64,000 nucleotides of DNA from Lytechinus pictus (lineage: Eukaryota), in the NCBI RefSeq assembly GCF_037042905.1, contig NC_087251.1, positions 10,356,001 through 10,420,000 on the forward strand. The letters run 5' to 3'. Of the stretch, positions 5,332 to 63,735 are shown in pieces. Both the position numbers and the translations under genes were made by a program. How positions within the stretch are numbered: position 1 is the first letter of the stretch; each line of letters starts with the position of its first letter. The notes beneath the pieces were generated by a model. That model had not been told where the DNA came from. It did not search any database and worked only from the letters and a program-made list of their open reading frames with translations.

Positions 5332-7272
5332 TGAATTCTTCTTCTGAAGTGTGAAAAGGTTAGTGAACTGTCAGGTTTAGATATGAAACTATTGCTCTCT
5401 CAGCTATTTAAAAAGCATAACTATTTTCTATCATTTTTTAAAGAATGCACTTTTTACATATATAATGAGATTTCAATATTCTATAGAACAGATCTTGTAT
5501 GGCATGTTTATTTAATGTATTCAATGTTTCCTAATGAGAAGTTGCTAAAATGCAGTGTCTTGACTCTATATCACTTTGTCTATCCTAGCACTTAACCATA
5601 CATGTAACATACATGTACCTCATAACAAATGCAGTTTAATTTTGCAATAAATTTAAAAAGTAATCAATCAACTTTGGATTGAACATAAAGACAATAAAAA
5701 TGTTGATGACATTTCAATCTAAGGACACAAGGTTGCCCAGGAATAGACTAGACTATATATCTCACCAATGACCAATATGCAGTTAATATATCTGCTATAA
5801 GCAGTAAGTGATTTACACTGATCAAATGTGATCTACTGATATACAATGAATCTAACATGATGAATGGTCACTCTGAAATGCGACAAGTCTTGCCTCATTT
5901 ATCGCGTAATTCCATCCTGGTAATATTGCACACACATCATCATCATCCTCATTCCCAAACTTTCCTTTGACACTACACTAAAAGCCTGGAAATTAATTTC
6001 AACTCATGGCCTTCGACTTTGATTACCTGCAGTTTTCTATCGCGACAAGATAAAAGGTATTATCAAGTAAAAGAAGAAAACACAATGACTATGAGATAAT
6101 CTTGAAATGATGAGATATATAATTGCTTCCTCACTGAAAAATTCAAATTTAAAGGACTACTCAAAGTATGTTATACCATTTATTTTCTTTGGTATTAAGG
6201 ACATGATTCATTTTAAACCATCTTAGATAATATCATGTTGCACTTATGTAAGTAAATATGCACACAATACCCAAGAGCACAAGAAAAGTAAGCAATGACA
6301 AAAAGGGTGTCGAGCTGGTAGAAGGTATTAAATTTATTTGGCAAATTTGGCTACTTCAGTTTAGGTGATATTTCTTTAGAAAAATAGAAAAAAATACTTT
6401 TATTTTCACTAATTAAACCATTTCCACTGCGGTATATAAATCAAATAATCACTTTTGATTTCATTGGGCAAGACAAACAATCCTTTCCTTGGTAATATAA
6501 AAAGTGTGTATAGGCTATCTTTCCCCAGTTTGGCTTCAGGAACATAGATAATAGTTGTTTGTTTTTCTCTCTCATCACCTTAATAGATGCCATGGTTTTA
6601 CATCTAATCTACATCATGCAATTAATTTTTTTTCATATACTTTATAATACGACGTATAACACAGGAATGAATACAGGGAAACATCATATAAGAATGCAAG
6701 ACAATTTCGCTATTTTTCCATTAAGTCTTGTGTTTAAGCGTTTTTATCCCTTGTATCCATTTCTTCCTGATGGCTACGTCGACGCCTGAAAAAGGATGCC
6801 ATTCGTGACAAATCACTGAATAAATTCATTGGCATGTGAAATAAATATTCACATACAGAGGTTTTTGTTACCATTTGGCCTGTCTTTGCCTGACCTGGTT
6901 CAGCAAATTCAAACGTCTAAAACAAGATGCAGAGACTTTGCTGTTAATTTACAGGAAAACTGAAGTAATTATAGCTAAAAATGCTCCTGTGAGTAGGGTC
7001 AGGGAGGACCTATGAATGACCAATGTGAGTTAAATGTCTGACTGTAAACCTTTAACAGTTAATTTGAAAATCCTTGGTGTATTCATGCGAACAACTATTC
7101 CATGTAATGTCAATATACCCAAGTAAGCATAAAAGTACATAAAGCTTGTATCTAGTTTGGGAAAATTAGAAATCATTCATTGCCACAATTTCAATTTTTT
7201 GTCAAATAAAGTGAAAGAGAATGTAAAAGATGCAATTTAAAATCTGAAATTAATTTTATTGATGAAAATTAA

Positions 7273-7837
7273 AGGTCAAGTCCACCTCAGAATGATGTTG
7301 ATCTGAATCAATGAGAAAAATCAGACAAGCATAATGCTGAAAATTTCATCGAAATCGGATGTAAAATAAGAAATTTATGACATTTTGAAGTTCAGATTAT
7401 TTTTCACAAAATAGTTATATGCACAATTTTAATAGTCACATGCAAATGAGAGATTCGATGATGTCCCTCAATCACTATTTCTTTTGTTTTTTGAATTATA
7501 CAATATTTTATTTTATACAGATTTGAAAATAAGGACCAACTTAACTGAACCATAAAATGTAAAAAAATGATAATTCCACATGTCCATGGAGAAAGAAAAC
7601 TTTGTTTCACATGACAATGAGGAGAAGATTATAATATCTCATATTTCATATGATAAAATACAAAAGAGATAGCGAGTGAGTGATGTCATCAGTTCCCTCA
7701 TTTGCATGTGAAATTAAGCGAAACTTAAAAATGTCATAACTTTCTTATTTTACATCAGATTTTGCTAAAAAATTTCAGTGTTATGCTTGTTGGATTTTTC
7801 CTTTTTATTCAAATCAACTTTTTGTTGGGGTGGACTG
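7273..7837 (+). mobile_element. Kolobok-type non-autonomous element (family A), copy 1
   Basis: Begins TTAA|aggtcaagtccac and has ~120-bp imperfect TIRs. Colinear with copies at 17434-24239 and 56343-57058. The right tip is eroded. Confidence 0.85.
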
Positions 7838-16324: not shown

Positions 16325-17309
16325 AAACGGCAAACGCCAAGCATTGTCTCGTCTGCATATTGCAGTCATGAAGAGACTGCATGTCAAAACTACATGTATG
16401 CTATATGACTTAGATGGACCTCTGTTATGAATTTGGCGATCTCACCTCGAAGCTATAGAAAGTTATTGTGTGTACAACACAGCACAGTGCCAGTCATGGA
16501 AAGTTCACTGACCTTTGACCTTATTCAAATTTGACTCATATTCGAACTTGACCTGTGACTTCAGGAGATGGACCTCTGGTATGAATTTGGTGATCCCACC
16601 TCGAAGATATAGAAAGTTATTATGTGTACAACACAGCACAGTGCCAGTCATGGAAAGTTCATTGACCTTTGACCTTATTCAAATTCGACTCATATTCGAA
16701 CTTGACCTGTGCCTTCAGGAGATGGACCTCTGGTATGAATTTGGTGATCCCACCTCGAAGATATAGAAAGTTATTATGTGTACAACACAGCACAGTGCCA
16801 GTCATGGAAAGTTCATTGACCTTTGACCTTATTCAAATTCGACTCATATTTGAACTTGACCTGTGCCTTCAGGAGATGGACCTCTGGTATGAATTTGGTG
16901 ATCCCACCTCGAAGATGTGTACAACACAGCACAGTGCCAGTCATGGAAAGTTCATTGACCTTTGACCTTATTCAAATTCGACTCATATTTGAACTTGACC
17001 TGTGCCTTCAGGAGATGGACCTCTGGTATGAATTTGGTGATCCCACCTCGAAGTTATAGAAAGTTATTATGAGTACAACACAGCAGTGCCAGTCATGGAA
17101 AGTTCATTGACCTTTGACCTTAATCAAATTCGACTCATATTCGAACTTGACCAGTGCCTTCAGGAGATGGACCTCTGGTATGAATTTGGTGATCTCACCT
17201 CGACCTATAGAAAGTTATTGGGTGTACAACACAATTGTTGACGACGATGACGCTGACACCGGAAATAGTGATAACTATGTCTCGCTCCGCTACGCAGGCG
17301 AGACAAAAA
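16325..17309 (+). mobile_element. Helentron-associated/pearl-like non-autonomous element with internal tandem array
   Basis: Subterminal inverted repeat tgtctcgtctgc (16345-16356) / gcaggcgagaca (17294-17305). 3' hairpin tgtctcgc...gcgagaca, (GAC)-like microsatellite at 17240-17260 and an A-run end. Confidence 0.75.
16412..17232 (+). repeat. ~154-bp tandem repeat, ~5.4 units
   Basis: TGACCTTTGACCT recurs at 16509, 16663, 16817, 16956 and 17108 (spacings 154, 154, 139, 152). Units are near-identical. Confidence 0.97.
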
Positions 17310-23704: not shown

Positions 23705-24360
23705 CTAAAAGAAAGTAATAAAAGTAAAATAATAAAGTTATGACATTTTTAAATTCCACTTATTTTTCACAAAACAGTAATATGCACAACTCTGTTGCAT
23801 GCAAATAAGACAGTCAATGGTGTCTCTCACTCACTATTTCTTTTGTTTTTATTGTTTGAATTATACAATATTTCATTTTTTACAGATTCGACATTAAGGA
23901 CCAACCTGACTGAGCCATATAGTATTAAACAATGTTAAATTCCACATGTTCAGGGCGGAATTAATTGTCGTTTCACTTGACAATGAGAAAATTAGAATAT
24001 TTCATATTTCACATAATAAAATACAAAAGAAATAGTGAGTGGACAAGGTCATCAGTCTCCTCATTTGCATACCAACCAGGACGTGCATAATATTAAACTG
24101 TTTTGTGAAATTAAGCAAAACTTTAATATATCATAACTTTCTTATTTTACATCCGATGTTGATGAAATTTTCAGTGTAATGTTTGTTGGATTTTTCTCTT
24201 TTTATTCAAATTAACTTTTAGTTGGGGTGGACTTGTCCTTTAAGAAAAACACATAAAAATATGTTATCAGTTTTTTTGTATGGAAGCATATATACTGGAG
24301 TATTAGAAAGAGTAATAAAAACACCACAGAATTATATTTATTTCTGCAGACCATATTTAC

Positions 24361-29354: not shown

Positions 29355-32111
29355 TAAATTTTTTTTCCTACAGTGGCAAATACTAGAGTGATGATTCCCT
29401 ATCCTCCACAGAAAATATTTCCTTTCCCCCAGCTTTATTTGGTATGTAATTTGTATTTCTTGCTTTTTTTTGTTTTAAAGAGAGATAATCTTTGATAAAT
29501 ATGACACCAGTCTTTACCCTTTTTTCACCTTTAAGTTTTGGTAAAGAGTAAATGCTGCGAATCTGATATTGGACAATACTTGAACATGCCAGTCTTAGAA
29601 AGGTATATCCTATCAGTTGATTCTTTAAACTTGAAACAGTTCTATCAAGTTCTATCATGCTTGAGAACTGGTTTCGATACCAAAATGAAAACAAGATCAA
29701 ATTGTTAGGGACTCAAGTTTTAAAAGTTCGACATTTTAATAGTACATCTAACCTCTCATCTCAGATCACATCTCTCACAAAACATTACATAATCTTTTCA
29801 TCTGACAGTGAAATCAAACTTTGAAAAAAAGAATAATCTGTAGTTTCATCAAAACTGAATGATGGCTCTGAAAATGTATTCTACTGTTGTCTCTACACAG
29901 GGAATACACTTTATACAATTTTCATTAAATTATATTACGGAATTCTGACTATATTACTGCATCAGTAATCACAATTTCTGACATTCATCAAAATTTTAGC
30001 CAAATTGATTTAGATGAGGATTCTTTCAGTAATAATCTTCATGTTCTTAGAATGGCTGCCCAGGAAAGCTCTCCATCATAATAACCTACAATTTAAAGCA
30101 ATAGAAAGTCCCGGAATATAAACATCCTAGAAGAATTTATCTGTACTGTTGCAAAACGAGAGCCCGCTCCTGGTGGAATACACATGAACCACTTCGATAC
30201 TCACTTGAAATGTTGGAATAATCCATTTGACCTAGTAAAAACACAATGAATGAGCATTGATCTGACTAAATAGGGAACCATTTCAAATGATGGCATTTTG
30301 ACATGGAAGGACTTTTGATGGGTATATGGGGGATTGTAATATAGAAAGAACTGGTTTATTTCAAATGAGTGAGTGGCAATAAATTAGTAGATACACAATG
30401 GAACTACTTATTAAACATCCATGAAGACACTAATATTATGAAGGGTCATACATCATCATACTTTTGTGAGATAATGTAACAATATCATTAAATTGATATA
30501 TCAAAATCAATTAAAAGTCTATCCTCCTATTATAAAGGGTTGATCAAAATAAATTTTGTGTTGGTGAATATGACTTGTATCCAATCCAAAATATAAATGG
30601 CAAGGATTGGCCAATTGGATAGTCATTATTTCCAAATAACAATTTTTTGGGGCAGATTCTGACCACTGTTTTTGCCTACCCATTGTTTCGACCAATAATT
30701 TTTTACAATGTATCATATTTTGTCACTGATTATTAGCATGATTCTTCGACTGAAAGGTTACATAACATGAAAAGTAATTAAAATATCAATTTTGAATGAT
30801 TTTTGTTATGGGTGCTGAACCTGTTTACCCTATATTATCATAAATTTGAAGGGAATAAGAGGAAAGTTTTAACTTCAAACCATATCAGATTTGGAAAACA
30901 GGAAAATTCGAAAATTCGAAAGACAAAACAAGTTCTGTGTTTCAAATAACCTAAAAAGACAAATTTACTTTCTTTGTAGAGCAATTTGCCTATCATATGG
31001 AAAATCCTTAATATGGCACTAACTGCAGAGGAAAAAAAGCGTTTTTAATAAATCAAAGTCCTGACACGAGTAAACAGACAATATAATATGTTATTTTTCT
31101 ATAAATGGTGGCTAAAAAATAGAAATTTTGAGGCGGAATCTTGTTAATCTTATCAACACAAAATTCAAATATCTCAATAAAGAGTAAAAGAGAGCATTCG
31201 GACAATATTCTTTTTAATAGTAGCAGTGATTATGAAAAATGGTATTGCAGGTCAATTATTTGAGCTATTACTTTTTAAGGCCATCTCACAAGGTGCCATC
31301 TAATGATACAATTTCAATTATGTTTGTTTCCTACTTTGTACATATTTGTAATGTTTTTATATTATTGTGGAAATAAATGATTTGATACCAACTGATAAAT
31401 TAGCACATAAATTTATTTCTCTCTTAAGTTTATTTACAAAATCATCCATGGCAAGGAAAAAATGATGTTTTTGGCCATCTAACACCATCTTGCATTTGAC
31501 GAAATTTAGAAGAAAGACGGTATCATGAGTGTTTTTGTGTCTTAAAAGGCCTTTGGTATGTCTTTCATTAAAACCCATAACATTACAACAACGGAGATGA
31601 AGTAATCTTCCTAGTGAACTCCAAGGGATCAAATGTGATCAATCAATCTGGCCAAAAATATGTCATAATTTCCCCCGAAGTGAAATCTATCACTAGTCTA
31701 TGAAATATAAAAATGTCATATACCCACATTTTCAATGAACTTTAGCTGAATCTATCAGTGTTTATATCTATACTTCAAATATGAATATAATCTTCAAAAC
31801 GCTAAAGGTACTCAATTGAAAAGTCCATAGCTATATTTTTTCAACTGAGGTATTAAATTTGTTAAAAGTGTCAGTAGTGAGATTTAAATCTGTATCATTT
31901 AAAATGAAATTCAAATGCATTCTGTTCCAATGCTCACCATATTTCACCAGGTAAAAATCCTCTTAAAAAAAAAAACCCTTAAAAACATCAAACAAAATCT
32001 TGAATTGCCTACATCCCATGACCCCTGTAATATCACTCCTAACCTAAAGAAAAGCAACAAGAATCTTTGTTCTAGTATTCTAGTGATAACAATAATTTCA
32101 TGGAAAGTTCA

Positions 32112-33011
32112 TTATACAAATAGCGAAATAACAATGGTGCGAGATAACGCATGAAGTGAAAGATAGATGCTCTATTCAACGAGGCGTTAGCCAAGTTGAA
32201 TAGAGTATTTCACTGAATGCGAAATCTCGCACCATTGCACGAATAAAAATATTCAATATTTGTGTTGTACAACGCCTCGGAAGTTAGCAAAAATACAAAC
32301 AATAATTAAGTTTTTCCTCTGTTAATCTATGAAAATGAGAGAGAAAATGCGCATTTAGCCAGTAAACCCTAGGGTCCGTATTCTGAAGTCAGGTTTAACT
32401 TAGACTACGGTCTAACTCTACTAAAATTATGGGGAGCCAAAATTTCAAAAATTCTGTTTATTTTTCTTATGTTTACTATTTCATATTCTTTTGATTTCGT
32501 AATGAAAAAAAATCTTCAGTTATCATTTCCAGACAATTATGAACAATTTGAGTGTCAAATTAATTAATAAAGTGGATTTGTACTGTTAGGGATTTGTGCC
32601 CCATTGGCTCTCCATTGTTAAACCACAACTTAAAACCAGGGTTTAATTTAAACCCGAGTTCAGAATACGGACCAGTCTTTAAAATAATGGTTTGTGTGGA
32701 CTCACCATGCTTACTAGGTAAAAAATGACCTCATTTACATATCTTATTGCAAAAAAAAAACACGAAAACATAGGTTCGTTATATTCAAGAAATGTTCAAA
32801 TACAAAGTCACTGTTTTCATAGATATTTATTCAGATAATGAGTTTGCAATTACTAAGCGCATGCGATGCGTTGAATCTTTATTTTTTATTGTGACGTCAC
32901 CTTTTCTTGACCCGTGCAACGGTACATTTAGGATGGTAAGTCGTGTGCAACGGTACGAATGTTCAGCCTCCCATTTGCTCGCGTACAACAAGCTAAGTAG
33001 GCACTGTACAA
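32112..33011 (-). mobile_element. Crypton-like non-autonomous element (terminal hairpin plus internal complement of joined ends)
   Basis: Hairpin arms caatggtgcgagat (32132-32145)/atctcgcaccattg (32224-32237) and ctctattcaac/gttgaatagag. ttgtacaacgcct (32265-32277) pairs 11/13 with the far end (32999-33011). Confidence 0.65.
32373..32673. mobile_element. MITE nested in 32112-33011
   Basis: TIR ggtccgtattctgaagtcaggtttaa / ttaaacccgagttcagaatacggacc. Confidence 0.85.
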
Positions 33012-35499
33012 TTTAACTTATCACATTCATTCAGTTCATTATAAATCAACTTTTTTACAAAAAGGATTTGACCTGCGGCTTAAGATATATAACTGTGGTA
33101 TTAATTTAGTGATGTTATAATTTAAGAGTTTTGTGACCTCTTTTTAATTATGAAATTGGGTGAATCCTTAAAAAAGCATGCTCTGTTCTACTTCACGACA
33201 CAAACATCTTGAAATAATCCCGAGTCCTTCAATTTTCATGTTTTGCTACAACAAAGAAGCCAAACTGGCTAACTCCAAAGAGCCAATATCCTTTATTTTT
33301 ACCACACAAAAGAATCCCTACAAGAGAGTTAATAATTTTTTGCATCATCTTCATCCTCCTCCTCCTCCTCCTCATCCTTATCATCATCATGATCATCTAG
33401 AGGTGTTTATTGCAGCCACATAAAATAAATTGAACATAAAAAGGCACAGGAAGCATTTTTCTTTGCAGGGTGAGAAGGAAGCCTCTATTATTCACCCAAA
33501 CCTTAATTGGTTGCTAAAAGCTATCAAGTATGTCCCCTTTCTTGCCTTTCTCATGATAACAATGCAGCATGTTACTAGATAAACCTTACCCATTCCATTA
33601 TAGGTGTTTCTGTTAAATGCAGCTGTAGGAAGGTGAACCTATCGCACTTTGGGGATGATAGTATTTGTAAAGTGAGAGTACCTTTAGGCACATACCTCAA
33701 GGTTTGAGTGTCCATCCATTTATACCAGAAAACAATCTTCTCTCTATCATAAAAACATGTCAGGCAGTATCAGTACAAGGTATAAAAATGGTGGTTTTGC
33801 CTCTCTTTCTGTATGCCTTTAATGTTTTAGTTAAAAAGGAGGGTTGAACAAAATACTGGTTGCAAAAAATATGAAAACTAAAAGAAGATGAAGGATGAAA
33901 TATGGGTATCTGAAGCATTCCTAGTAAATAAATCATATATCTAACATCCTTTTTTGTCCTTCATTTGAAGCAAAATAACGATATTCCTGAAAGAAATATG
34001 ATTCAAGACTAAGTGACATGCAGCATTGATATGTGTTTATTATGAAATGGGATGAGAAAGGGAATACAAGACTGCATTTCTAATGGGATGGCTTTCATTA
34101 CCAAAAGTACATGGATGAACAACTTATCTACACAAAATTGCCTTAAACCACTGAACTGATTTTTCTAATGAGAAACATCATTAGAATAATATTTTGACTT
34201 GTAATAACCCATACTCCAACAAGCGCCCCCTCCAGGGCACACAATAAGCAAGAATATTAATATACAAGACGTCCCCAAGTCTGCCTGGGTGCCTAATTCC
34301 GCCCACCAAACAAACAAATGAACTGCATTGTATACGCAGGCTTATCAAATTAGGCTCAATTTTGCCAGGTGAAGTGGCAAGGATGGAAGGACGTAGATCT
34401 TCTCATCTCTTGTCATCGTTCTTGGGTTAACAAAGTGACGACAATGACGGTGCTTTGGCTCCAGGTTGTTCTCTTCAGCACCAGCTTTCCCCAGGTCTCT
34501 TTCTTCATTCAAGGAAAAGATTAATATGATTATGCTTTGAGCTCTACTTGATTGAAAGACATGGACAAAAATCAAATGAAATGATTATGTATCATCTGAC
34601 TTCTCATTATCTTGCCTCTATGTGCCCTGCTCTTTTCATTTGTGTTCTGTATCATCTGTTTGATGAAGCAAACTCTGGTTAATTCCATGACAATCATCTT
34701 TTGATTCTTAACTAGCCTTTGAATTTGTAAGATATAGTAAGAAAATGTCTTTCATTAGATGCTAGTCCCTACATCAATGATGAAGAAGAGAAGCTTTATA
34801 CAAACAGCTTTTAGACATCATTAGTACGCTCTTACTACAGGCAGGTTGGATGATCATTCAGAAAAGTGAATTATAGAAAATCTTTGATGACTCAGCTCGT
34901 TAATTTGATGTGACGACAACACTATGAAGGGGATATTTTTTATTTCAGTTAAAACAATTCAGTGTCAAAGTGTATTATGATACTACAATGTCAAAAGTTT
35001 ATGAATAGAAGGCCAAACTCAAATCAGTGATAGAATAAATTCAATACAAAAAATATATGACTTTGCAAATCAAGCGCTTTTTCTATGAGCAGATAAAAGT
35101 TTTAAAATGTCACGATTCTGTATAAAAGTGTTCTGGGAGTAATCCTAAAATGAGTTTGAAAAAACATCCAGAAAAAACTACAATGAAGAATTTATAAAAG
35201 AGGGAGTTCTCTTAGAATAACAATAGAACTGTTACATACCAATATGGTCTAATAAAAGTAGAACTGTTATGAAAGTGATAAACGGGTACAGACATAATAA
35301 AAAAACAAAGATTTTTTTACTAAGAATGATAGATTTAGTGATTGTGATGGGAGGAAAAAGAGATAAAATGGCAAAAACAGAGAGACATATTTTAAAAAAA
35401 GGAATGGCAGGCTAGAATATAAAATAGTTGAGGGGACATGATAGGGTCTCATGCTTGTACATACAGTTAGGTAAGAAATCAGAAGAGGAAGAGAGAATG

Positions 35500-48177: not shown

Positions 48178-49009
48178 TTATTTGGAATGAGGTAGTGGTG
48201 GTGTCTTTTTTTTTTTTTTTTTAACTTTAGAGCATGAATGCTTGATAGCAAGTTACCAGAGGACTGATTCATCTGTGAGAAGCACTGCTCTACCAACTGA
48301 GCCATCATACCACCTTTTAATCATCATGCCTCCATATAGGCCCTATTGCTTTAGCATTCTTCATTGTGCACCACATTATGATGTATTAGGATGAGCTGGA
48401 GGGTATGTATTCCTAGGGAATGACCAATATCCATATCAAGTACCAAGATGTGAGGGGAAATCAAAAGGCATGGAGAGCTGTCTGAGAGGGGACGGTATCC
48501 CGCCCTACTGTAAATGGGCTGATACTTAGCGTCGCCATGTAAATAACATGATGGGGCTATAAGCATCACCAAGTGGAGTGGATGAAGGGGGCACAAAGAA
48601 TTTGAATTGGCAATTTATCCATATCCAAGATCGATTATTTTCATTTTAATTTCTTCTTAGAAACCACTTCCATACATGAATTAAGTTCCGGTGATCATAC
48701 ATTGAAATTGGTTTTATTTATGAGTCATAAGTTGCATATATCTTTCTAAAATACATGTATAAACTCAAGTTAAACATTGTAAGGGTACTGTAGTGTGGTA
48801 CAAGGCATTAAAAAATACAAAATTGGTTATGCTGTTACCAAACACTTCATTATATAATTATCTGTGACATAGATATTTATGTGTTGCTGTACTTCATTAT
48901 GCAGTGTCTCAATGAATTTTGTGCACTACATACAAGAAAGCAAAAGGAGAAGATGAACAACGCTTAAACAAAATAATTCTTAACTTTGGCCATCATTAAA
49001 TATAATGAA

Positions 49010-50352
49010 ATATTAGATAGCCAAGACAGATAGCCAAGCGCGATTGGTCCATAGCGTGTCACGTGATATTATCGAAATCAATGTATTTTCCAGCCGGTTC
49101 ACCTTCGATGAATATATTCTTCGTGTATGGCGCCCTCTTGTGGATTAGATGTTACCAATTACACGGAAATAACATATGTGAGGCTAAAGTAGCATTCTTT
49201 TGCAATCGATCAACACTCGATATCAATTGGAATAAATCAATTTTCGAACCGGACCGCCGAATTTAAGTGAGTCCAACGACGACGAGTTAGGTTTAACGTT
49301 AGGCCTTCTTCAGGTACTAAAATGGAGTATATAGATTTGTGTAGACAGGAATAACCGTCATTTCTGAAATTCTGGGGATTTATTTAACAATTTCTGGATA
49401 TGTATTGGTGAGTGGAGCCAATATCGCCAGATAGAGACTGAAGAAGCTTAAATTAGACCTAGACTAGTCTAGTTAGTTTTAAAACTTTTAGATCCAGACT
49501 TTTGGACTTGGTCTATTAACGTCAAAGATTTGTGTGATGTGTGATGTCTGATGAGCAATGAGGAATAAGATCAGCTTTTGGACAATAAAATTGGGTAAGT
49601 AGATAGATCTAGATCTAACGTTAGATCTACATTATAAATAAGTTCTAGACTTATGTTAGACCTATTTTTTTTAGATCTAATGATAGATCTAGGGCCAGGC
49701 TTGATTCTATCGTTAAAAGTTAGAGAAATCTAATGTTAATCTTGCTAACTTCAACGACAACGTAAGTTAACATTAGTGTTGACAAAACATTAACAGTTAC
49801 ATCTAGATCTAACGTACTTGTTAGTTAGATTTGGTCCTGGACCTGGTTCGACAACAAAAAGGTCCGGACCACCACCAACAGTAGTCTGACCTAGATCTAG
49901 ACCTCTAGTCATGTTTATCTCATCCCCAATTAATCTGCACCTGATCATTGCTCAACATGCACATGCATTCGATCTGCCTTGGGTGGGTCCTGGGCCTGGA
50001 CCGGACTCTAAATTAGATCTAGATCTAGGCCTAAACAAACTTGATTTTGATTAGAAAAGGGTCATTCATTACGTTAGGCTAACGTTACTTAGATCTATAC
50101 CAGTTCCATCAGTCACTTAATATGCACGCATCGCAGACCTAACTTTAGATCTAAGGTTAGATCTATATCTTCATCATTCAAGGCTATCTAATATAACAGA
50201 TATTGACTGATGGGGTGTGTAAAAAAAACATTCTTTGGAATGCCTAAAGGATTTACATTTTCCCTCAGCGCTGTGCGCTTCAGGAAAATATAAATCCGGC
50301 AGTCAAAAGAATGTTTATATTACACACCCCATCAGTCAATATCTGTATATTA
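49010..50352 (+). mobile_element. Crypton-like non-autonomous element
   Basis: ATATTA direct repeat at both tips. atattagatagcc (49010-49022) is the exact reverse complement of 50182-50194. Terminal hairpin 50196-50346 has perfect 27-bp outer arms. Confidence 0.75.
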
Positions 50353-55780: not shown

Positions 55781-56342
55781 TAACAGTTATGCGTATATAT
55801 CTGTATGATTGGATTCTGGCTTATATAGCTGGGCAATTCCATTAAATGATCAACCTTTTTGTACCTCCAACCCTCATTTTCTCAAGTCTTACTTTACTTC
55901 ATAAACTGACCAAGTCATGGTCCTTTGACAACATTACAGACTGTCAAAAGAACCAGAAATCAGAGACAGAAAATGTCATGAAGGTCCCACACATACGGGG
56001 TTGGACATGCGTATTTTATGGAATTGCCCAACTAACTATTGACTTCCTGTTCCTAACTAACAAGAGACTAATTATTAAGGTCTTCTAGGAATTTCTTGCA
56101 TTCCCTGAACTATTCTATCCGATGACTTAATAACCACCTCTGTATCATTCAACCTTGTGTATTGGATTACTTAAGATCAGAGGAGTAAGTGGGCGTGATT
56201 CTGCAAATGTCAGAGTTTTCTTTTTCTTTCATGTGTCACATTGTTGTACAACTTACAAAAAAGTATATGTGAGGCGTATGAATTACACATGTGTCCAGGT
56301 ATGTCGATATAAAAAACCAAAATCTGAAATTTCACCTATCAA

Positions 56343-57058
56343 AGGACACGTCCACCCCAACAAAAAGTTGATTTGAACAAATAGAGAAAAATCCAAGAAG
56401 CATAACACTAAAAATTTCATCAAAATTGGATGTAAAATAGGAAAGTTACGACATTTCAAAGTTTTGCTAAATTTCACAAAACAGTTATATGCATATCCTG
56501 GTCAGTATATGCAAATGAGGGGACTTAAGACGTCACTCACTCACTATTTCTTTTGTATTTCATTACATGAAATATGAAATATCTTATTTTCCTCCTCATT
56601 GGAAGGTGATATAAGTTTTCTTCCTCCATGAACATGTGGAATAACAATTTTATGGTTCCGTAAAACTGGTCCTTATTGTCAAATCTTTAAAAAATGGAAA
56701 TATTGTATAATTAAAAAAATAAATAACAAAAGAAATACATCACAGACTCTCTCATTTGCGTGTTGCCGGGTTGTGCATACACTGTAAAAAATGAAGTGCT
56801 AATTTAGCACTTACAGTGCTTGTATAGTGACTGCGCTACGAGTGCTCTAGTTTAAATTTGAACTAGAAAATCAGCACTCGTAGTGCAGTCACTATACAAG
56901 CACTGTAAGTGCTAAATTAGCACTTCATTTTTTACAGTGTCTAACTGTTTTGTGAAAAATAAGCAAAGCTTTTTAAAATGTCATAACTTTCAACGTTATT
57001 CTTGTTTGCTTTTTCTCTATTGATTCAAATCAACATTTTTCTGGGGTGGACTTAACCT
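56343..57058 (-). mobile_element. Kolobok-type non-autonomous element (family A), copy 3, opposite orientation
   Basis: tcaa|aggacacgtccacccc ... ggggtggacttaacct|ttaa. Interior is the reverse complement of copy 1. Carries a nested insertion. Confidence 0.88.
56780..56939. mobile_element. 160-bp palindromic MITE (CACTG...CAGTG)
   Basis: Two 67-bp arms differ at one position around a short, itself palindromic spacer. Flanks TA/TC fit a 2-bp TA TSD with one change. Confidence 0.93.
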
Positions 57059-58616
57059 TTAATTTATAATACCCAATTTTTCAGGATGGGTTACATATAT
57101 ATATAACCTGCATGTTGATTAACACAAATAAAAAAACAAAAAACTGTCAGTTATTAGGCTAGTTGAAATTCAATGAATCCATTATAATGAATATTGCATT
57201 CCATCATCACAAAAATTGTATCTACATTAAAATGAATTTTATAATGTCATCTGCATTTCAAAATGCAGAAACCATTGCTTGCTTACAATGAATTTCTCCT
57301 TTAGATCTGATTGGCAATTGTTCACAATTACATATCAAAGATAAATCATAAACACGTATTCATACAAAATAGCAAAGGGAAATTTTATGATATAAAGGGG
57401 GGGGGGGTATATGAAATGGTGAAGATGAATGTAATCCCACTTCAATGTTTCAATATTTTCAATAAACTCAATCTTGTGGCATTCCTGCAAAATATTTCAT
57501 TCAGAGTATAATCATTTAACATCATATAATTATGCTTAAGATGTCTCTCTAATGTCATAACTTGTCAAGAATGTAGTATTGTAACTGAACATCAAAGAAG
57601 CCTATATGTAAATTTGACCCTATACTGTCACTAATGATATACCCCAAAGTCTTTGTAAGTTTGACCTAATCATACTATTGATGATATTCTCAAATGCAAG
57701 ATTAATCAGGATTAATCAGACTATATTGTCACAATATCTACAGCCCATCAAGGCATAAATCATTTTAATGTATATATTTCCTCAGCAATTCAATAAAATC
57801 AAATTCACATTGTTTGCACTACTAATAAGCTGAACCATTTACCAAGATGTTCCATTTTTATTCATACTCATCAATAATATTTTAAGCTGTAATCAAATTT
57901 AAGCTGTAATTTAGTGTGATCACACATAATGTTTAAGGCTCTCCTTGTATTCCATTGTTAAAGAAAGTTTGCCTTCATAAAGAATTACATGAAAAGACTC
58001 ATTATTGGTTGTTTTTCTTTCTCCAGTTTTCCTCCATCTTTTGACTAACATCATTATCATTCTATGCTATTTCCTCTCCAATAATTTATAAAAAAAAGAA
58101 TCTTTATCATTATTTTCTTATCAACGTTTCCTGAATCCCTATCAAAAACGGGAAATTTCTGAGAAAGAAAAAAATAAAAGCAATAACAAGTTGACCAATA
58201 TCGGAAATGAGAACATCAAAATCAAAGTGATTTACTAACAAGCAATTTCCAACATGGAACCCCTGTCATGGTACCATACTATTCATTGCTAAGATCAGGT
58301 CAATTAATTGTCTATGTCTAGTGACATTTTAATCAATCTAGTATATCATTCTACATTCTCAAGACACACCTGTCAATTGGATTCAGTACATAAATCATCA
58401 CACGCAAATCTGATTTGAAAACGATAACTGGAAGCAGAAAATTGAAGTCTATGGGTTGAAAGAAAGAAAAAATTCTATACGATACAGGAGATTTTAGATA
58501 GGCACTAGCATAATAAAAAGATTGAAAATTAAATTGTTTCTTTTGAATCAAATTAAACTTATTTACTTATAGTTTACAAACAAAATTAGTACTATATTAA
58601 CTTACAGTAATACAAT

Positions 58617-59500
58617 AACAAGTGGAATGCCTCTGGCTGTCTCACCTGCATCACGCGATTCAATATAGCAGCAGTGCTGACTTTGAAAACTACTATAAAA
58701 CAATTATTCACAAAAAACACCATTCATATAATGATATAATACTACGTTCATTAACATTTGACCTTGATCATGTGACCTAAAACTTGTCAGTGATACTTGA
58801 TTACCCCTAGATCTATAAACTTTGAAAGTTATGACAGCAATCTAATAATTACCTCTAAAATGGCCAAAGTTCAATGACCTTAAATGACCTTTGACCTTGG
58901 TCATGTGACCTGAAACTCACACAAGATGTTCAGTGATACTTGGTTACTCTTATGTCCACGTTTTATGAACTAGACCAATACACTTACAGAGATATGATGG
59001 TAATTCAACAAATACCCCCAACATGGCCAAAGTTCATTGACCTTAAATGACCTTTGACCTTGGTCATGTGACCTGAAACTCGGATGGGATATTTAAAGAT
59101 ACTTGATTACTCTTATGGCCAAGTTTCATGAATTAGATCCATAAACTTTCAAAGTTATGATGGTAATTCAACAGATACCCCATTATGGCCAAAGTTCATT
59201 GACCTTTGACATTGGTCATGTGACCTGAAATTCGCACAGATGTTCAGTGATACTTGATTACTCTTATGTCCAAGTTTTATGAACTAGACCATTAAACTTT
59301 CAAAGTTATGATGGTAACTCAGGCAGAATGTTCAGTAATACTTGATTAACCTTATGGCCAAGTTTCATGAACTAGGTCCATATACTTTCTAAGTTATGCT
59401 GTCATTTCAAAAACTTAACTTAGGTTAAGATTTGGTGTTGACGCCGCCGCCGGAAAAGCGGCGCCTATAGTCTCACTCTGCTATGCAGGTGAGACAAAAA
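58617..59500 (+). mobile_element. Helentron-associated/pearl-like non-autonomous element with ~162-bp tandem array
   Basis: Perfect 14-bp subterminal IR tgtctcacctgcat (58638-58651) / atgcaggtgagaca (59483-59496). 3' hairpin gtctcac...gtgagac and (GCC)n. Repeat starts at 58862, 59025 and 59187. Confidence 0.85.
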
Positions 59501-61623
59501 CTAGTAACTTAAAAGCAATCCACAGCTGAAGAAAGATATGAATAAAATAAACAATTGAGAAAATGATTTTTTTGTTAATATATCCATCTTAAGAATAATA
59601 ACTGGGTTGATGAGAAAAATACTAAAATATTGCTGAATGTTCTAGTGTTCAACCGTTGAAGAGAAAACAGATGTCCCCTGAGTCCACAACTGCCCTCCAA
59701 TCAGTTGATGGTAGAATTTTAGCTGAGAATTTGATTTCAATACAAAATAGATAGATTAATCAAATCTTCAGAAATTAATTACTATCAACCTTTCCAATGT
59801 TTTGTGTCACTGCAATTTTCTGGGGCTTTCCTTAATTATACAATTTGTGAAAGTTTTTGTGCACAAGTTCCAAGCAGGCTGAAAATGACATGTGCAGGGG
59901 TATGATATGGCTGTGCACTTGCGTTTATAAAAACATGTGGCCACATGTAGAGTTTGTACGATGATGTGTCAAACTGCATGTTTTGCATGGTCCTGCATGC
60001 TTGATGATAAAGTTGCAGAGTTGTGCATGAACTTCAAGGGTTTTTCATAAAATTAGCCACAGGTCACATCTACTGAGGTGCACAGAAACTAAACTTAATT
60101 GACTGTAAATTACATTATCCTGCTATTGTGTGAGGTAAATCAAAATTACAGTACCACTACCGTCCAAAGATAAATAGTAAAATTAGCCGATTTGTTAACA
60201 AATCAAGATGAAAGAGTATGCGATGGAGAAAAATGAGACTGTAAACAAAAATACAGACAGACTGTATACGGTATTCCGTTTCTGAAATTTATACTGACAA
60301 TTGGAGGGAGAATAAAAAAAATATGGACAATAGTAACTGATGTACCGTAACACTTCAAGGTAGAGGGCAGCATATCATTTCTCTTGATAGGTGCCATGGA
60401 ACTCATTGATTGGAGTACACAATCAATTAAATTTCATATTCATATAAAACAAACCAATATAACTCGTGTTAAGAAGAGGCTGGCCTCAGAGCCACAATTT
60501 GCCTGCTTGACTGTGGCTTTGAATTGAAGTCACATGCATGTTGCGTGTAGAAAAAATTACAAGACTAATGATAGTGCTTCATCTACAAAGAATAATATAG
60601 CAACTTCAGTTTTGAAACTGTTCTAATGAGGGGCCCCCCAAAAAATGTATTATTATCATTATCTAACCTCACATCCACAACATATTGGTATGATTAAAAA
60701 TAGAATTGAACCCACAACCTGCCATTCATGAGAAGGGTGCTCAACACTGAGTCACCACGCCCTGGTGTTGATCTACTAGATATTAAGAATTAAACAGACA
60801 AAACTGTTGAACCTAGTTCAAATTTCACGGTGGATACTTCCTGCATTTCAGTTAAGACTATCTTCATCTTACCTTCTCATCTGCGGACTGCTTAAAGGAC
60901 AGGACAAATTTTATATGGCTTCCATGATCATTAGCAGACAAGATTCCTTCTGATATAAATCTGAGGATTATAAAAGTGATATGAAAATAGAACTGAATAA
61001 GGGCTTCATCATTAGAAGATATCCTTCATCCTAATTTTATGACGGTTTAATCATTAATTGATGGCTTGCAATGTGTACTCATGTAATCATGTCATGGTTC
61101 GCTATCGCATTCTGAGCAGTCATAAAAACGCATCCTCTACGAAGTACAGGGTCTACACTTTCTAATCACAAAAAGTCACAGTTCTGCGAATATGTGACAT
61201 GAGTCTTTACGTACTTTACCCATTTTTTAAAGAATTTAAAAATTGCAATCGCTTGTTAGTAAGACTAATCATGACGTCACACACCAAAATGCACCTGCAC
61301 AAAGATCGCAATGCATGTGTACAACAAAATATGCAAGTCTCACAAGCCTTTGTAGATATATTTATCCCTGATTAAATCTGAGGATTATAAAAGTGATATG
61401 AAAATAGAATTAAAAGATATTCCTTATACTACATTAATCTGAGGATAATAACAGTGACATGAATTAGAAATAGATGAGGGCTTCATTACTTCTTTTCATT
61501 TTCCACTAACAAACTTTCTAGTACTCATTTTTTTCCAGCTTGGGCAATCAAGATCACTGTTGCATGTGTATTTTGCTTAGAATATTGACCAGGAACCAAT
61601 CGTAATTGTCCTTTCATATTTAC

Positions 61624-62300
61624 TATTATTACCTATACGAAGTGTTTCTCCTTGGCAATCATTATCCATATTTTGCTTTCTCTGATTTCGCAGCGGTCAA
61701 TATCGTGCCGTATTTTCTCTCTTCCGGGTTTTCCCATTGACTTTGTGTGTAAATTTAACAGCGGGCAATATTCGCGAAATCCGGTTGGAACCAGTTTGTG
61801 AAGAGACCGCAGTTGTAGCGCAGCGCGGCTCTATACAGCGCAGCGCATAGTGCGATGCATGTCATGCACATAGACGTGAGAAAATGGCTACTTCTAAGAG
61901 ATTCGCTTGTTATGGTGCAGACGAATTTGAAAATATAGTGACAAAGACGCTGAAAATACCAAAAAGTCTATGAAACAGGCCGTTGCTGTATTCCGTGAGT
62001 ATCCGCTTGAAAAATCTATTCCGGGCGATTTCGAGACACTGGATAAAGAGACCCTTGGAAAGATTTTGGGGAAATTTTATGTGTCAAATTTTGGGGAAAT
62101 TTATCAACACAGATTTTGGGGATTTTTTAAAATCAATTTACTATATAGGTAATAATAATAGTATTAACTGGCATAGAATGAGATACAAACCTATATTTCC
62201 CTCTCTGAATCCAATATTGCCCAAGCCGAAGGCGCGGGCAATATTGGATTCACATAGGGCAATATAGGTTTGTATCTCATTCTATGCCAGTCAATATTAT
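61624..62300 (+). mobile_element. Crypton-like deletion derivative
   Basis: tattattacctata (61624-61637) is the exact reverse complement of 62144-62157. Terminal hairpin 62162-62222/62236-62296 with a GCCGAAGGC apex. Internal coding remnant. Confidence 0.8.
61884..62086 (+). pseudogene. N-terminal remnant of Crypton/DUF3504-type tyrosine recombinase
   Basis: MATSKRFACYGADEFENIV / (frameshift ~61940) DKDAENTKKSMKQAVAVFREYPLEKSIPGDFETLDKETLGKILGKFYVS. Fits the RF...NT.K...AV..F..Y.......L...L.KFY pattern recalled for Crypton, ZMYM and KCTD1-type proteins. No catalytic domain is present. Confidence 0.7.
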
Positions 62301-63735
62301 ATAATTAATCACATTCCTACCCCTTTGCCCCTATACACACACCCAGGGTCAGCTATTAATGTTCTATAGGTACTATGGAATACTTAAAACACAGCAACTC
62401 ATTACAAGTAAATCTATACAATTGTCTGTGATAATGACTATGTTCATAAGACAAGTCACAGCTCCCATCCACCAATTAATACATTACATGAATATCACAC
62501 TTATTCCATTGAAGATAAAGCAAAATCAGTTCAAGAAATAAGGAAACATATCCAGACGTTTAAATAAACAAAAATAATTTGTAGGCAAACTGCACACCAA
62601 CATGAGTTATAAGACTGACCTTAAATTCTCTTCATGATGTTAGTGTTTGAAGAGAGCAAAACTTAGGTTCCAAATTCAATGTTTGCAGAATTACCAGTAT
62701 TTCTTTTTAAGAAAAATCCATACCTTTCCATTACTTCAGAAAAAATAAATAAATTGACATATAATGAATGCTCCTTTTTGGTAGCTGGAAATGGGGCCTT
62801 TAATACCTTTGAATGTTCTTGTAAAATAATTGAGATTCTCCTGTCAATATCATTCTAGTCTGAGACGCTATATCATAAACATCTGTAAAGTATTATCAAT
62901 GCCTTCTATCTATAGGTTGATCAGAGGAACTATAACTGGGAGGAGGAACTCATGTCATATCTCATTGAATCATGTTCTGATTTACATGATGCACTCGACA
63001 GACATCAGAAAAAGAATAGTATAACACAATATAATTTCACTTCTATAAAAATGCATTTCCATCCATTAAAAAGTTTTATTACAACTTAAAAAAAAAAAAA
63101 TCCAAATACACAGGTCTTAATAAACAATTGAAGTTATCGGACGTAATGTGTAAAATACAAAATGGCAAAAATACCATCTAAATAGAATTTCACCTATGAT
63201 GTATTCTTCCATGTAATTTATTTTTTCTCTGATTTTTTGTCCAAAAGTGAAGGCAATGTAGACTAAGACTTTGGATATCAGCAGTAGATATCAACTAAGT
63301 ATAATTAGAGACCAACAACCAATTACTCATAATGAACCTCAGGAGATAGATAACAACTTCTGTACACATGTGACTTAATTCTATAATCAATCATCACATC
63401 TGCATGCAAGTAGACTTAACAAGACATCAGCACATGCAGCAAAGTAACGCACTGTGTCTACTTCATTTAAAAAGTCTATATTTCCCCCGATCTTTGGGTA
63501 TATAGAGCAAATCCCTTGGTATCAATTGAAATCATCACTCTTCTTTTCTCTTTCTCCTCTACTCCTTTAACTTCCATCACTTTCTTTCTTTTTAGGATGT
63601 TGTCTAACGCCCATACTTCTGAGTAGCGAGGCCGCTGGAAAAAACCCTTCTCCCAGAGTCTTTGTAACTGTGAGTCGGCCTGAGACCAAGGCCAGCAAAA
63701 TGTGGCCCAGGCTGGCCTTGAATACATCCCTGCAG

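Follow-up and report, generated by a model that had tools for sequence, protein, structure and literature searches.

Two ends, an inner mirror copy and a tail hairpin of a Lytechinus pictus CryptonA element likely fold on one strand into the site of its recombinase

The element described here lies within a 64,000-nt stretch of Lytechinus pictus DNA (hereafter the window), and is a dead, internally deleted, non-autonomous CryptonA derivative. Its two ends, an inner copy that mirrors them and a hairpin that forms its tail likely fold together on one strand into the site on which the recombinase acts, a reading to which we assign a probability of roughly 0.55. By analogy, an attC-like single-strand recombination site is the model that probably describes this arrangement best. 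We propose a single-strand fold because both the layout and a pronounced one-strand bias are conserved across families of different sequence. Within a known superfamily, the end design is both real and conserved, and it appears to be undescribed.

The extent of the element (Table 1) follows from an empty allele, in which DNA read contigs on 61300-62600 pass directly from the left flank, which ends at 61628, into the right flank, which resumes at about 62308, the letters after 61628 matching 62308-62316 plus a small indel. This joint is represented by one contig each in two of three DNA runs, from two studies, and the runs, which share only a small part of the stretch's words, may come from another population or species. 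A second basis for the same extent is provided by the many partial contigs of other copies across the three DNA runs. Many partial contigs also cover the interior, which indicates that the family of the element is multi-copy, their depth giving no copy number. No second copy of the element is present in the 64-kb window, and no end-to-end (circle) joint was among the joints listed for the DNA runs, the contigs of which drop rare forms. The original prediction, made from the sequence alone, had placed the ends at 61624 and 62300. The empty site moves them to 61629 and 62307, so that the predicted right end falls 7 nt short. TATTAT, a 6-bp repeat present at 61624 and again at 62295, had also been considered as marking the ends, and was abandoned in view of the empty site.

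At these revised ends, the left core closes with the 4 bp ATTA (61625-61628), which are found again at the right end and are present once in the empty allele. The two 6-bp cores are identical at 4/6 positions, and thereby include an exact 4-bp direct repeat, as expected for the 4- or 6-bp end repeats of Cryptons. Ordinary terminal inverted repeats with a target duplication, which, if shown by other copies, had been named beforehand as speaking against the prediction, are found at the element neither by self-comparison nor at the empty site, in agreement with a CryptonA assignment. The element borders a fragment (61545-61621) of a different repeat, which is very abundant and is seen also in RNA reads; one RNA run on 61300-62600 returned mostly other repeat families, a result that is uninformative as to expression.

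The interior retains a remnant of a tyrosine recombinase gene, with a frameshift near 61932-61940 that divides it over two frames into pieces of 28 aa and 49 aa. Both frames match P0003, the nearest relative at the protein level, a DUF3504 protein of 506 aa that also has a phage-integrase domain and is known here as protein only; for the second piece the identity reaches 83% over 48 aa (E 3e-16, HMMER). This bears out both the frameshifted Crypton/DUF3504-like N-terminus and the Crypton identity that had been proposed from the letters. A profile search likewise derives the element from a DUF3504-like tyrosine recombinase (E 1e-14), as is the case for CryptonA. A Pfam search of the remnant gave no meaningful match, and a word-index search with the 49-aa piece found nothing, unlike the full HMMER search. 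In P0003, the catalytic residues R194/R196, K228, H318, R321, H344 and Y353 are present, and its predicted fold is Cre-like (pLDDT 75), the fold search ranking Cre at 1 and an integron integrase entry at 41. With its catalytic residues intact, and an extra C-terminal domain and a reverse transcriptase both absent, as for CryptonA, P0003 represents an autonomous-type partner for the element. Its named relatives are largely from echinoderms and molluscs.

Table 1. Features of the CryptonA element and of two further elements of the same layout (window positions).
Feature	Position	Strand	Remark
Whole non-autonomous CryptonA element	61629..62307	+	679 bp including one core copy; from the empty site
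Left 6-bp core	61623..61628	+	target sequence of the host, which the empty allele retains
Right 6-bp core	62302..62307	+	first two bases element-owned; from empty-site and core comparison
Arm A, the element's first bases	61629..61637	+	exact complement of 62144-62152
Internal complement of arm A	62144..62152	-	
4-nt spacer of the internal complement	62153..62156	-	2 nt shorter than the 6-nt junction core
Hairpin left arm, complement of the right end	62157..62227	+	
Hairpin right arm, arm B at its end	62231..62301	+	
Hairpin apex: 2x2 loop, 3-bp stem, GAA triloop	62223..62235	+	
Tyrosine recombinase N-terminus remnant	61884..62083	+	about 66 codons; truncated by internal deletion
Degenerate 19-nt direct repeat, three copies at 25-nt intervals	62061..62129	+	at the deletion breakpoint
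Second element with the same layout	about 49007-50352	+	no detectable coding remnant
Third element with the same layout	about 32110-33014	-	no detectable coding remnant

The right end of the element is formed by a long hairpin, with arms of 70 nt (62158-62227 and 62231-62300) that are 90% complementary around a 3-nt loop, and with a z of -17.7 against 200 shuffles. A hairpin had been predicted here, with arms of about 60 bp; its presence is confirmed and only its size needed correction. Upstream of the left arm, the sequence continues into a complement of the far end: 61624-61637 and 62144-62157 form a 14-nt exact complement, which was reached in 0/2000 shuffles of the upstream 557 nt. When the window was searched with a 17-mer, 3 matches at no more than 2 mismatches were obtained, versus 0.02 expected, one of which is an unrelated TAA run. 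Joining 62284-62300 to 61624-61637 does give the predicted match to the reverse complement of 62144-62174 at 29/31 positions, 17 of the 31 bases being the hairpin itself. That this 31-mer would equal the junction of the ends was incorrect: once the true ends are joined, arms B and A are separated by 6 nt, against 4 nt in the internal complement, which makes the junction 2 nt longer. Within the stem, position 62256 is mostly C in other copies (DNA read contigs), which forms a TC/TC loop with 62202-62203. The apex of the studied copy carries its G..A loop on the gene strand, in a polarity opposite to that of the other families, and we infer a local flip. A GGGCAATAT-like motif occurs at 61687-61703 and 61755-61771 in the 5' region and at 62236-62271 in the hairpin stem; these copies are candidates for additional recombinase binding sites, and may possibly serve as such.

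Two further elements in the window keep this layout, spacer and polarity, while their sequence differs from that of the studied element. In the element at 49007-50352, the 5' arm is located at 49013 and the 4-nt spacer near 50192, followed by a long hairpin to 50346 with a TC/TC apex loop. The antisense strand of the element at 32110-33014 carries loops of GA type as well as a GTTA tetraloop; the element is seemingly interrupted by another repeat near 32370-32675.

The layout also extends well beyond the window. A scan of metagenome contigs, of which the best 80 of 470 relatives were kept, yielded 52 families at 80% identity, the counts of which are not fully independent, since the families are related and the contigs may merge copies. 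Among the families from these best 80, 16/52 carry a long hairpin, located 0.3-1.3 kb downstream of the gene region that was matched. For the 32 families with at least 700 nt downstream, this amounts to 14 with a long hairpin, 5 with a weak one only and 13 with none. On a quick tree, built without named reference Cryptons, the hairpin families are scattered over both halves, and only 4/136 hairpin pairs are alike by BLAST. One locus, L087, was placed outside the 16 representatives, as its detected hairpin belongs to a neighbour. The related elements measure about 1.8-2.2 kb. In one autonomous family, visual inspection indicates that the recombinase gene apparently retains a GT..AG intron, as would suit a DNA intermediate.

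The sequence immediately beyond the left arm could be compared with the element's own 5' end in 14 families. In 8 of these it matches at a level found in 0/100 shuffles, with 2 further families at 6-7/100 and no match in the other 4; the shuffle control used fewer offsets than the test and is hence slightly lenient. Furthermore, in 13 selected elements with optimised anchors, in several rows of which the register was slid, the internal complement agrees with its own 5' end at 8.8/9 positions and with those of other elements at 3.5/9. The covariation of internal complement and termini across families, on which the original prediction depended, is thus observed. Two multi-copy families (5 and 3 copies, in different flanks) start to diverge at 6 nt past arm B; their internal spacer measures 4 nt, and copies differ from one another in the end core. 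The register between left and right cores is a weak test, with an identity of 0.62 at 6 nt and also 0.60-0.62 at 2-3 nt. Averaged by family, it gives 0.52 at 6 versus 0.44 at 4, one of 15 rows being mis-anchored. In two other end comparisons, automated anchoring misplaced 4/17 and 4/15 rows.

Some individual contigs deviate from this picture. The left flanks of L114 (1-70) and L096 (2293-2332) look like an end, or like the internal complement, of a related family; their spacer exceeds the internal one by 2 nt, and they could represent insertion into the site of a relative, a tandem junction or an assembly chimera. In L046 (3775-3853) and L098 (2010-2090), the outer right arm perfectly complements the left arm, unlike in sister copies, either through gene conversion or as an assembly artefact. 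Viral contigs contained 36 loci with the hairpin pattern, none of them like the element, and a protein scan of the same kind of contigs detected no Crypton relative. Genome contigs, when scanned for the protein, gave 2 loci. One of these, L118, carries the label of a bacterial genome, but the transposon fragments next to it suggest animal DNA, and we do not take it for a bacterial Crypton.

The imperfections of the hairpins are strongly biased towards one strand. In one representative each of the 16 families, the stems together contain 35 two-by-two loops, of which, on the gene strand, 29 show TC/TC and 0 show GA/GA. Read on the antisense strand, these TC/TC loops become tandem G-A pairs, and 26/29 stand in a pyrimidine-GA-purine context, a setting that has been described for sheared G-A pairs occurring in tandem in DNA (PMC10085684). 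G..A tri- or tetraloops form the apex on the antisense strand of downstream hairpins in 13 families, on the sense strand of upstream hairpins in 2 cases, and never otherwise; such loops belong to the DNA mini-hairpin types, which according to PMC13037366 resist nucleases. L037, the closest of the relatives represented by DNA, obeys the antisense rule at its apex. Strand-asymmetric unpaired features in an imperfect hairpin are therefore a property of these families, to which the apex of the studied copy is the exception. Standard folding energies favour the antisense strand mildly, in 12/16 families, and other inverted repeats in the same loci have mixed mismatches, save those that resemble Crypton ends. 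A bias of 29:0 is difficult to account for without the folding of one DNA strand, and as a pattern in sequence it points to such folding. In L118 (4490-4680) and L069 (40-90), the hairpin is located upstream of the gene and the G-A motifs are on the gene strand, which suggests that hairpin polarity follows the ends of the element rather than transcription; the far ends of these two elements were not found.

So how might a recombinase make use of such an end? In the model that we favour, the antisense strand would become single-stranded, at a replication fork, as a displaced strand or in a cruciform, and would then fold, held in shape by the tandem sheared G-A pairs and the G..A mini-hairpin loop. 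Arms A and B would stack on the continuous internal strand, giving a duplex recombinase site with a spacer of 6 against 4. Due to this lopsided spacer, exchange with the host target, which is AT-rich and has TA or TG at its end, would be limited to the junction strand, after which replication would resolve the product, as in integron attC x attI recombination. For a deleted copy such as this one, the recombinase would be supplied in trans by an intact relative. The folded single-strand site of integrons undergoes exchange of one strand and is then resolved by replication, since a second exchange would lead to abortive linear products (PMC3458562), and the unpaired features of attC set the strand (PMC5027507). 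By extension, animal CryptonA elements might in general be single-strand recombinase transposons, which read a fold, exchange one strand and leave the finish to replication, as a eukaryotic counterpart of integron cassette movement; this wider proposal is tentative, and we rate it at slightly below even odds.

The main rival, which we deem unlikely, borrows from DIRS elements: the internal complement would act as a splint that holds the ends of a linear single strand for circle joining, with the circle then made double-stranded and integrated by exchange of both strands. The layout is that of the DIRS internal complementary region, which is required for DIRS-1 movement (PMC7192593), and a splint would also fit the strand bias. 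The internal complement may serve as a splint. However, the DIRS region is an exact complement that serves as a template, whereas in the Crypton the spacer falls 2 nt short, and the core at the ends, being longer and variable between copies, is not copied from the internal region. The lack of a reverse transcriptase domain in P0003 also argues against it. Of the fold-back put forward in the original prediction, the single-strand folding itself holds up, and the templated end-joining in the DIRS sense has become doubtful on account of this longer, copy-variable core. Less probable again is that the hairpin serves as a replication or protection signal (an origin, a priming site or a nuclease-resistant cap) on a copied-out single-stranded circle, with recombination taking place on double-stranded ends. 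The nuclease resistance of mini-hairpin loops would agree with this, in a review that also has sections on phage single-strand origins (PMC13037366), as would the bacterial SE elements, which circularise one strand by means of a tyrosine recombinase (PMC9345347). Such a signal nevertheless leaves unexplained why the base of the hairpin continues, over a fixed 4-nt spacer, into a covarying complement of the far end.

The remaining readings carry little weight. It had been suggested that an excised circle could undergo FLP/FRT-like inversion or amplification, by recombination in double-stranded DNA between the circle junction and the inverted internal copy. Such a circle would indeed bear two inverted near-copies of the site, the apex of the studied copy is reversed, the hairpin lies upstream of the gene in two cases, and the left flank of the L114 contig is a stretch like the internal complement. 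Some integrases, of the Tn916 type, tolerate unequal spacers, which counts for this reading too. Nonetheless we find it very improbable: the spacers are not equal, at 6 and 4 nt, inversion would bring GA/GA to the gene strand, where it is seen in 0/35 loops of the 16 families, 0/13 downstream apical loops are flipped, and the lower stem of the studied copy is unflipped. We are just as sceptical of a hairpin that acts in RNA, as a transcript end or a source of small RNA. It is located behind the gene in most families, and miRNA models (Rfam) do score it, all far below their cut-offs. On the other hand, the motifs that stabilise the hairpin occur on the antisense strand, its triloops are of DNA type, and the layout both reaches the far end of the element and persists where no coding remnant is detectable. 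A functionless by-product, arising from fold-back duplication of one end, would be in keeping with how common palindromic MITEs are, one being present in the window. This reading is largely refuted by the recurrence of the same geometry in families of unlike sequence, by the covariation, and by the 29:0 strand bias of the mismatches.

Comparison with known systems places the element among tyrosine recombinase transposons while setting its ends apart. In non-autonomous elements of the Helitron2/Helentron group, the 5' end is inverted relative to a subterminal stretch beside a 3' hairpin; the hairpin is short and the enzyme is an HUH nuclease. The studied remnant and its partners, in contrast, are tyrosine recombinases without an HUH Rep-helicase, and the layout is shared by autonomous relatives. 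Phage CTX attP, which is grouped with the SE elements, is also served by a tyrosine recombinase, through one-strand exchange or a folded single-strand substrate. The Vibrio SE elements themselves resemble the Crypton in their tyrosine recombinase, 6-bp spacer, and exchange of one strand or use of a folded single-strand substrate, but are bacterial and either multi-gene or dependent on a host recombinase, and the part of PMC9345347 consulted does not describe a long terminal hairpin for them. Like the Crypton site, attC is recognised by a tyrosine recombinase and consists of an imperfect hairpin with unpaired features that differ between the strands and an unpaired central spacer (PMC3458562, PMC5027507). 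The attC site, however, is one local hairpin, whereas the Crypton site needs long-range pairing with the far end; its strand bias stems from tandem G-A pairs, and the predicted fold of the recombinase has no special likeness to integron integrase. Single-strand use has been demonstrated for attC and is only inferred for the Crypton. DIRS-1 likewise relies on a tyrosine recombinase and has, close to its 3' end, an internal region that is complementary to both termini (PMC7192593). The studied element and its relatives differ in having no reverse transcriptase, RNase H, gag or long inverted repeats, and in a complement that is 2 nt short at the junction instead of exact; they are likely DNA-only.

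With CryptonA, the element shares a single DUF3504-like tyrosine recombinase, the existence of non-autonomous derivatives, a short AT-rich end repeat and the absence of ordinary terminal inverted repeats, and it differs by its long terminal hairpin and the internal complement of both ends. Animal Cryptons have been listed as having no terminal repeats (Kojima and Jurka 2011, PMC3212892), the supplement giving 'n.d.' in two medaka rows, and for Glomhopper, a fungal CryptonA, a 2026 paper gives terminal repeats as undetectable (PMC13465315). A 2025 paper states that Cryptons are without conserved structural features (PMC12130899), while salmon Cryptons and Eulor5/6 are reported to have similar termini (Kojima 2018, PMC5753468). 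The searched parts of PMC3212892, PMC13465315 and PMC5753468 do not mention a hairpin or palindrome, and a description of this end layout was not found in the literature outside Repbase notes and subscription journals.

The movement of Cryptons has so far been proposed by analogy only, and a conserved end design offers a concrete, testable substrate. The layout can also serve as a simple criterion by which to locate the ends of Cryptons and to classify their many non-coding derivatives. If the single-strand model is true, it would link DIRS elements, Cryptons and integrons mechanistically, and would offer a compact recombinase from eukaryotes in which shape guides the insertion of DNA. The implications may extend to Eulor5/6, human repeats derived from Cryptons, and to domesticated DUF3504 proteins (PMC5753468).

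Elsewhere in the window, a near-perfect palindromic, MITE-like insert at 56779-56940 was searched for two-by-two loops; none were found, and it looks ordinary. It sits within an inverted-repeat family at 56338-57065, with relatives at 7266-7836 and 23724-24243. Self-comparison of the window further shows tandem repeat arrays at 16412-17233 and 58746-59410.
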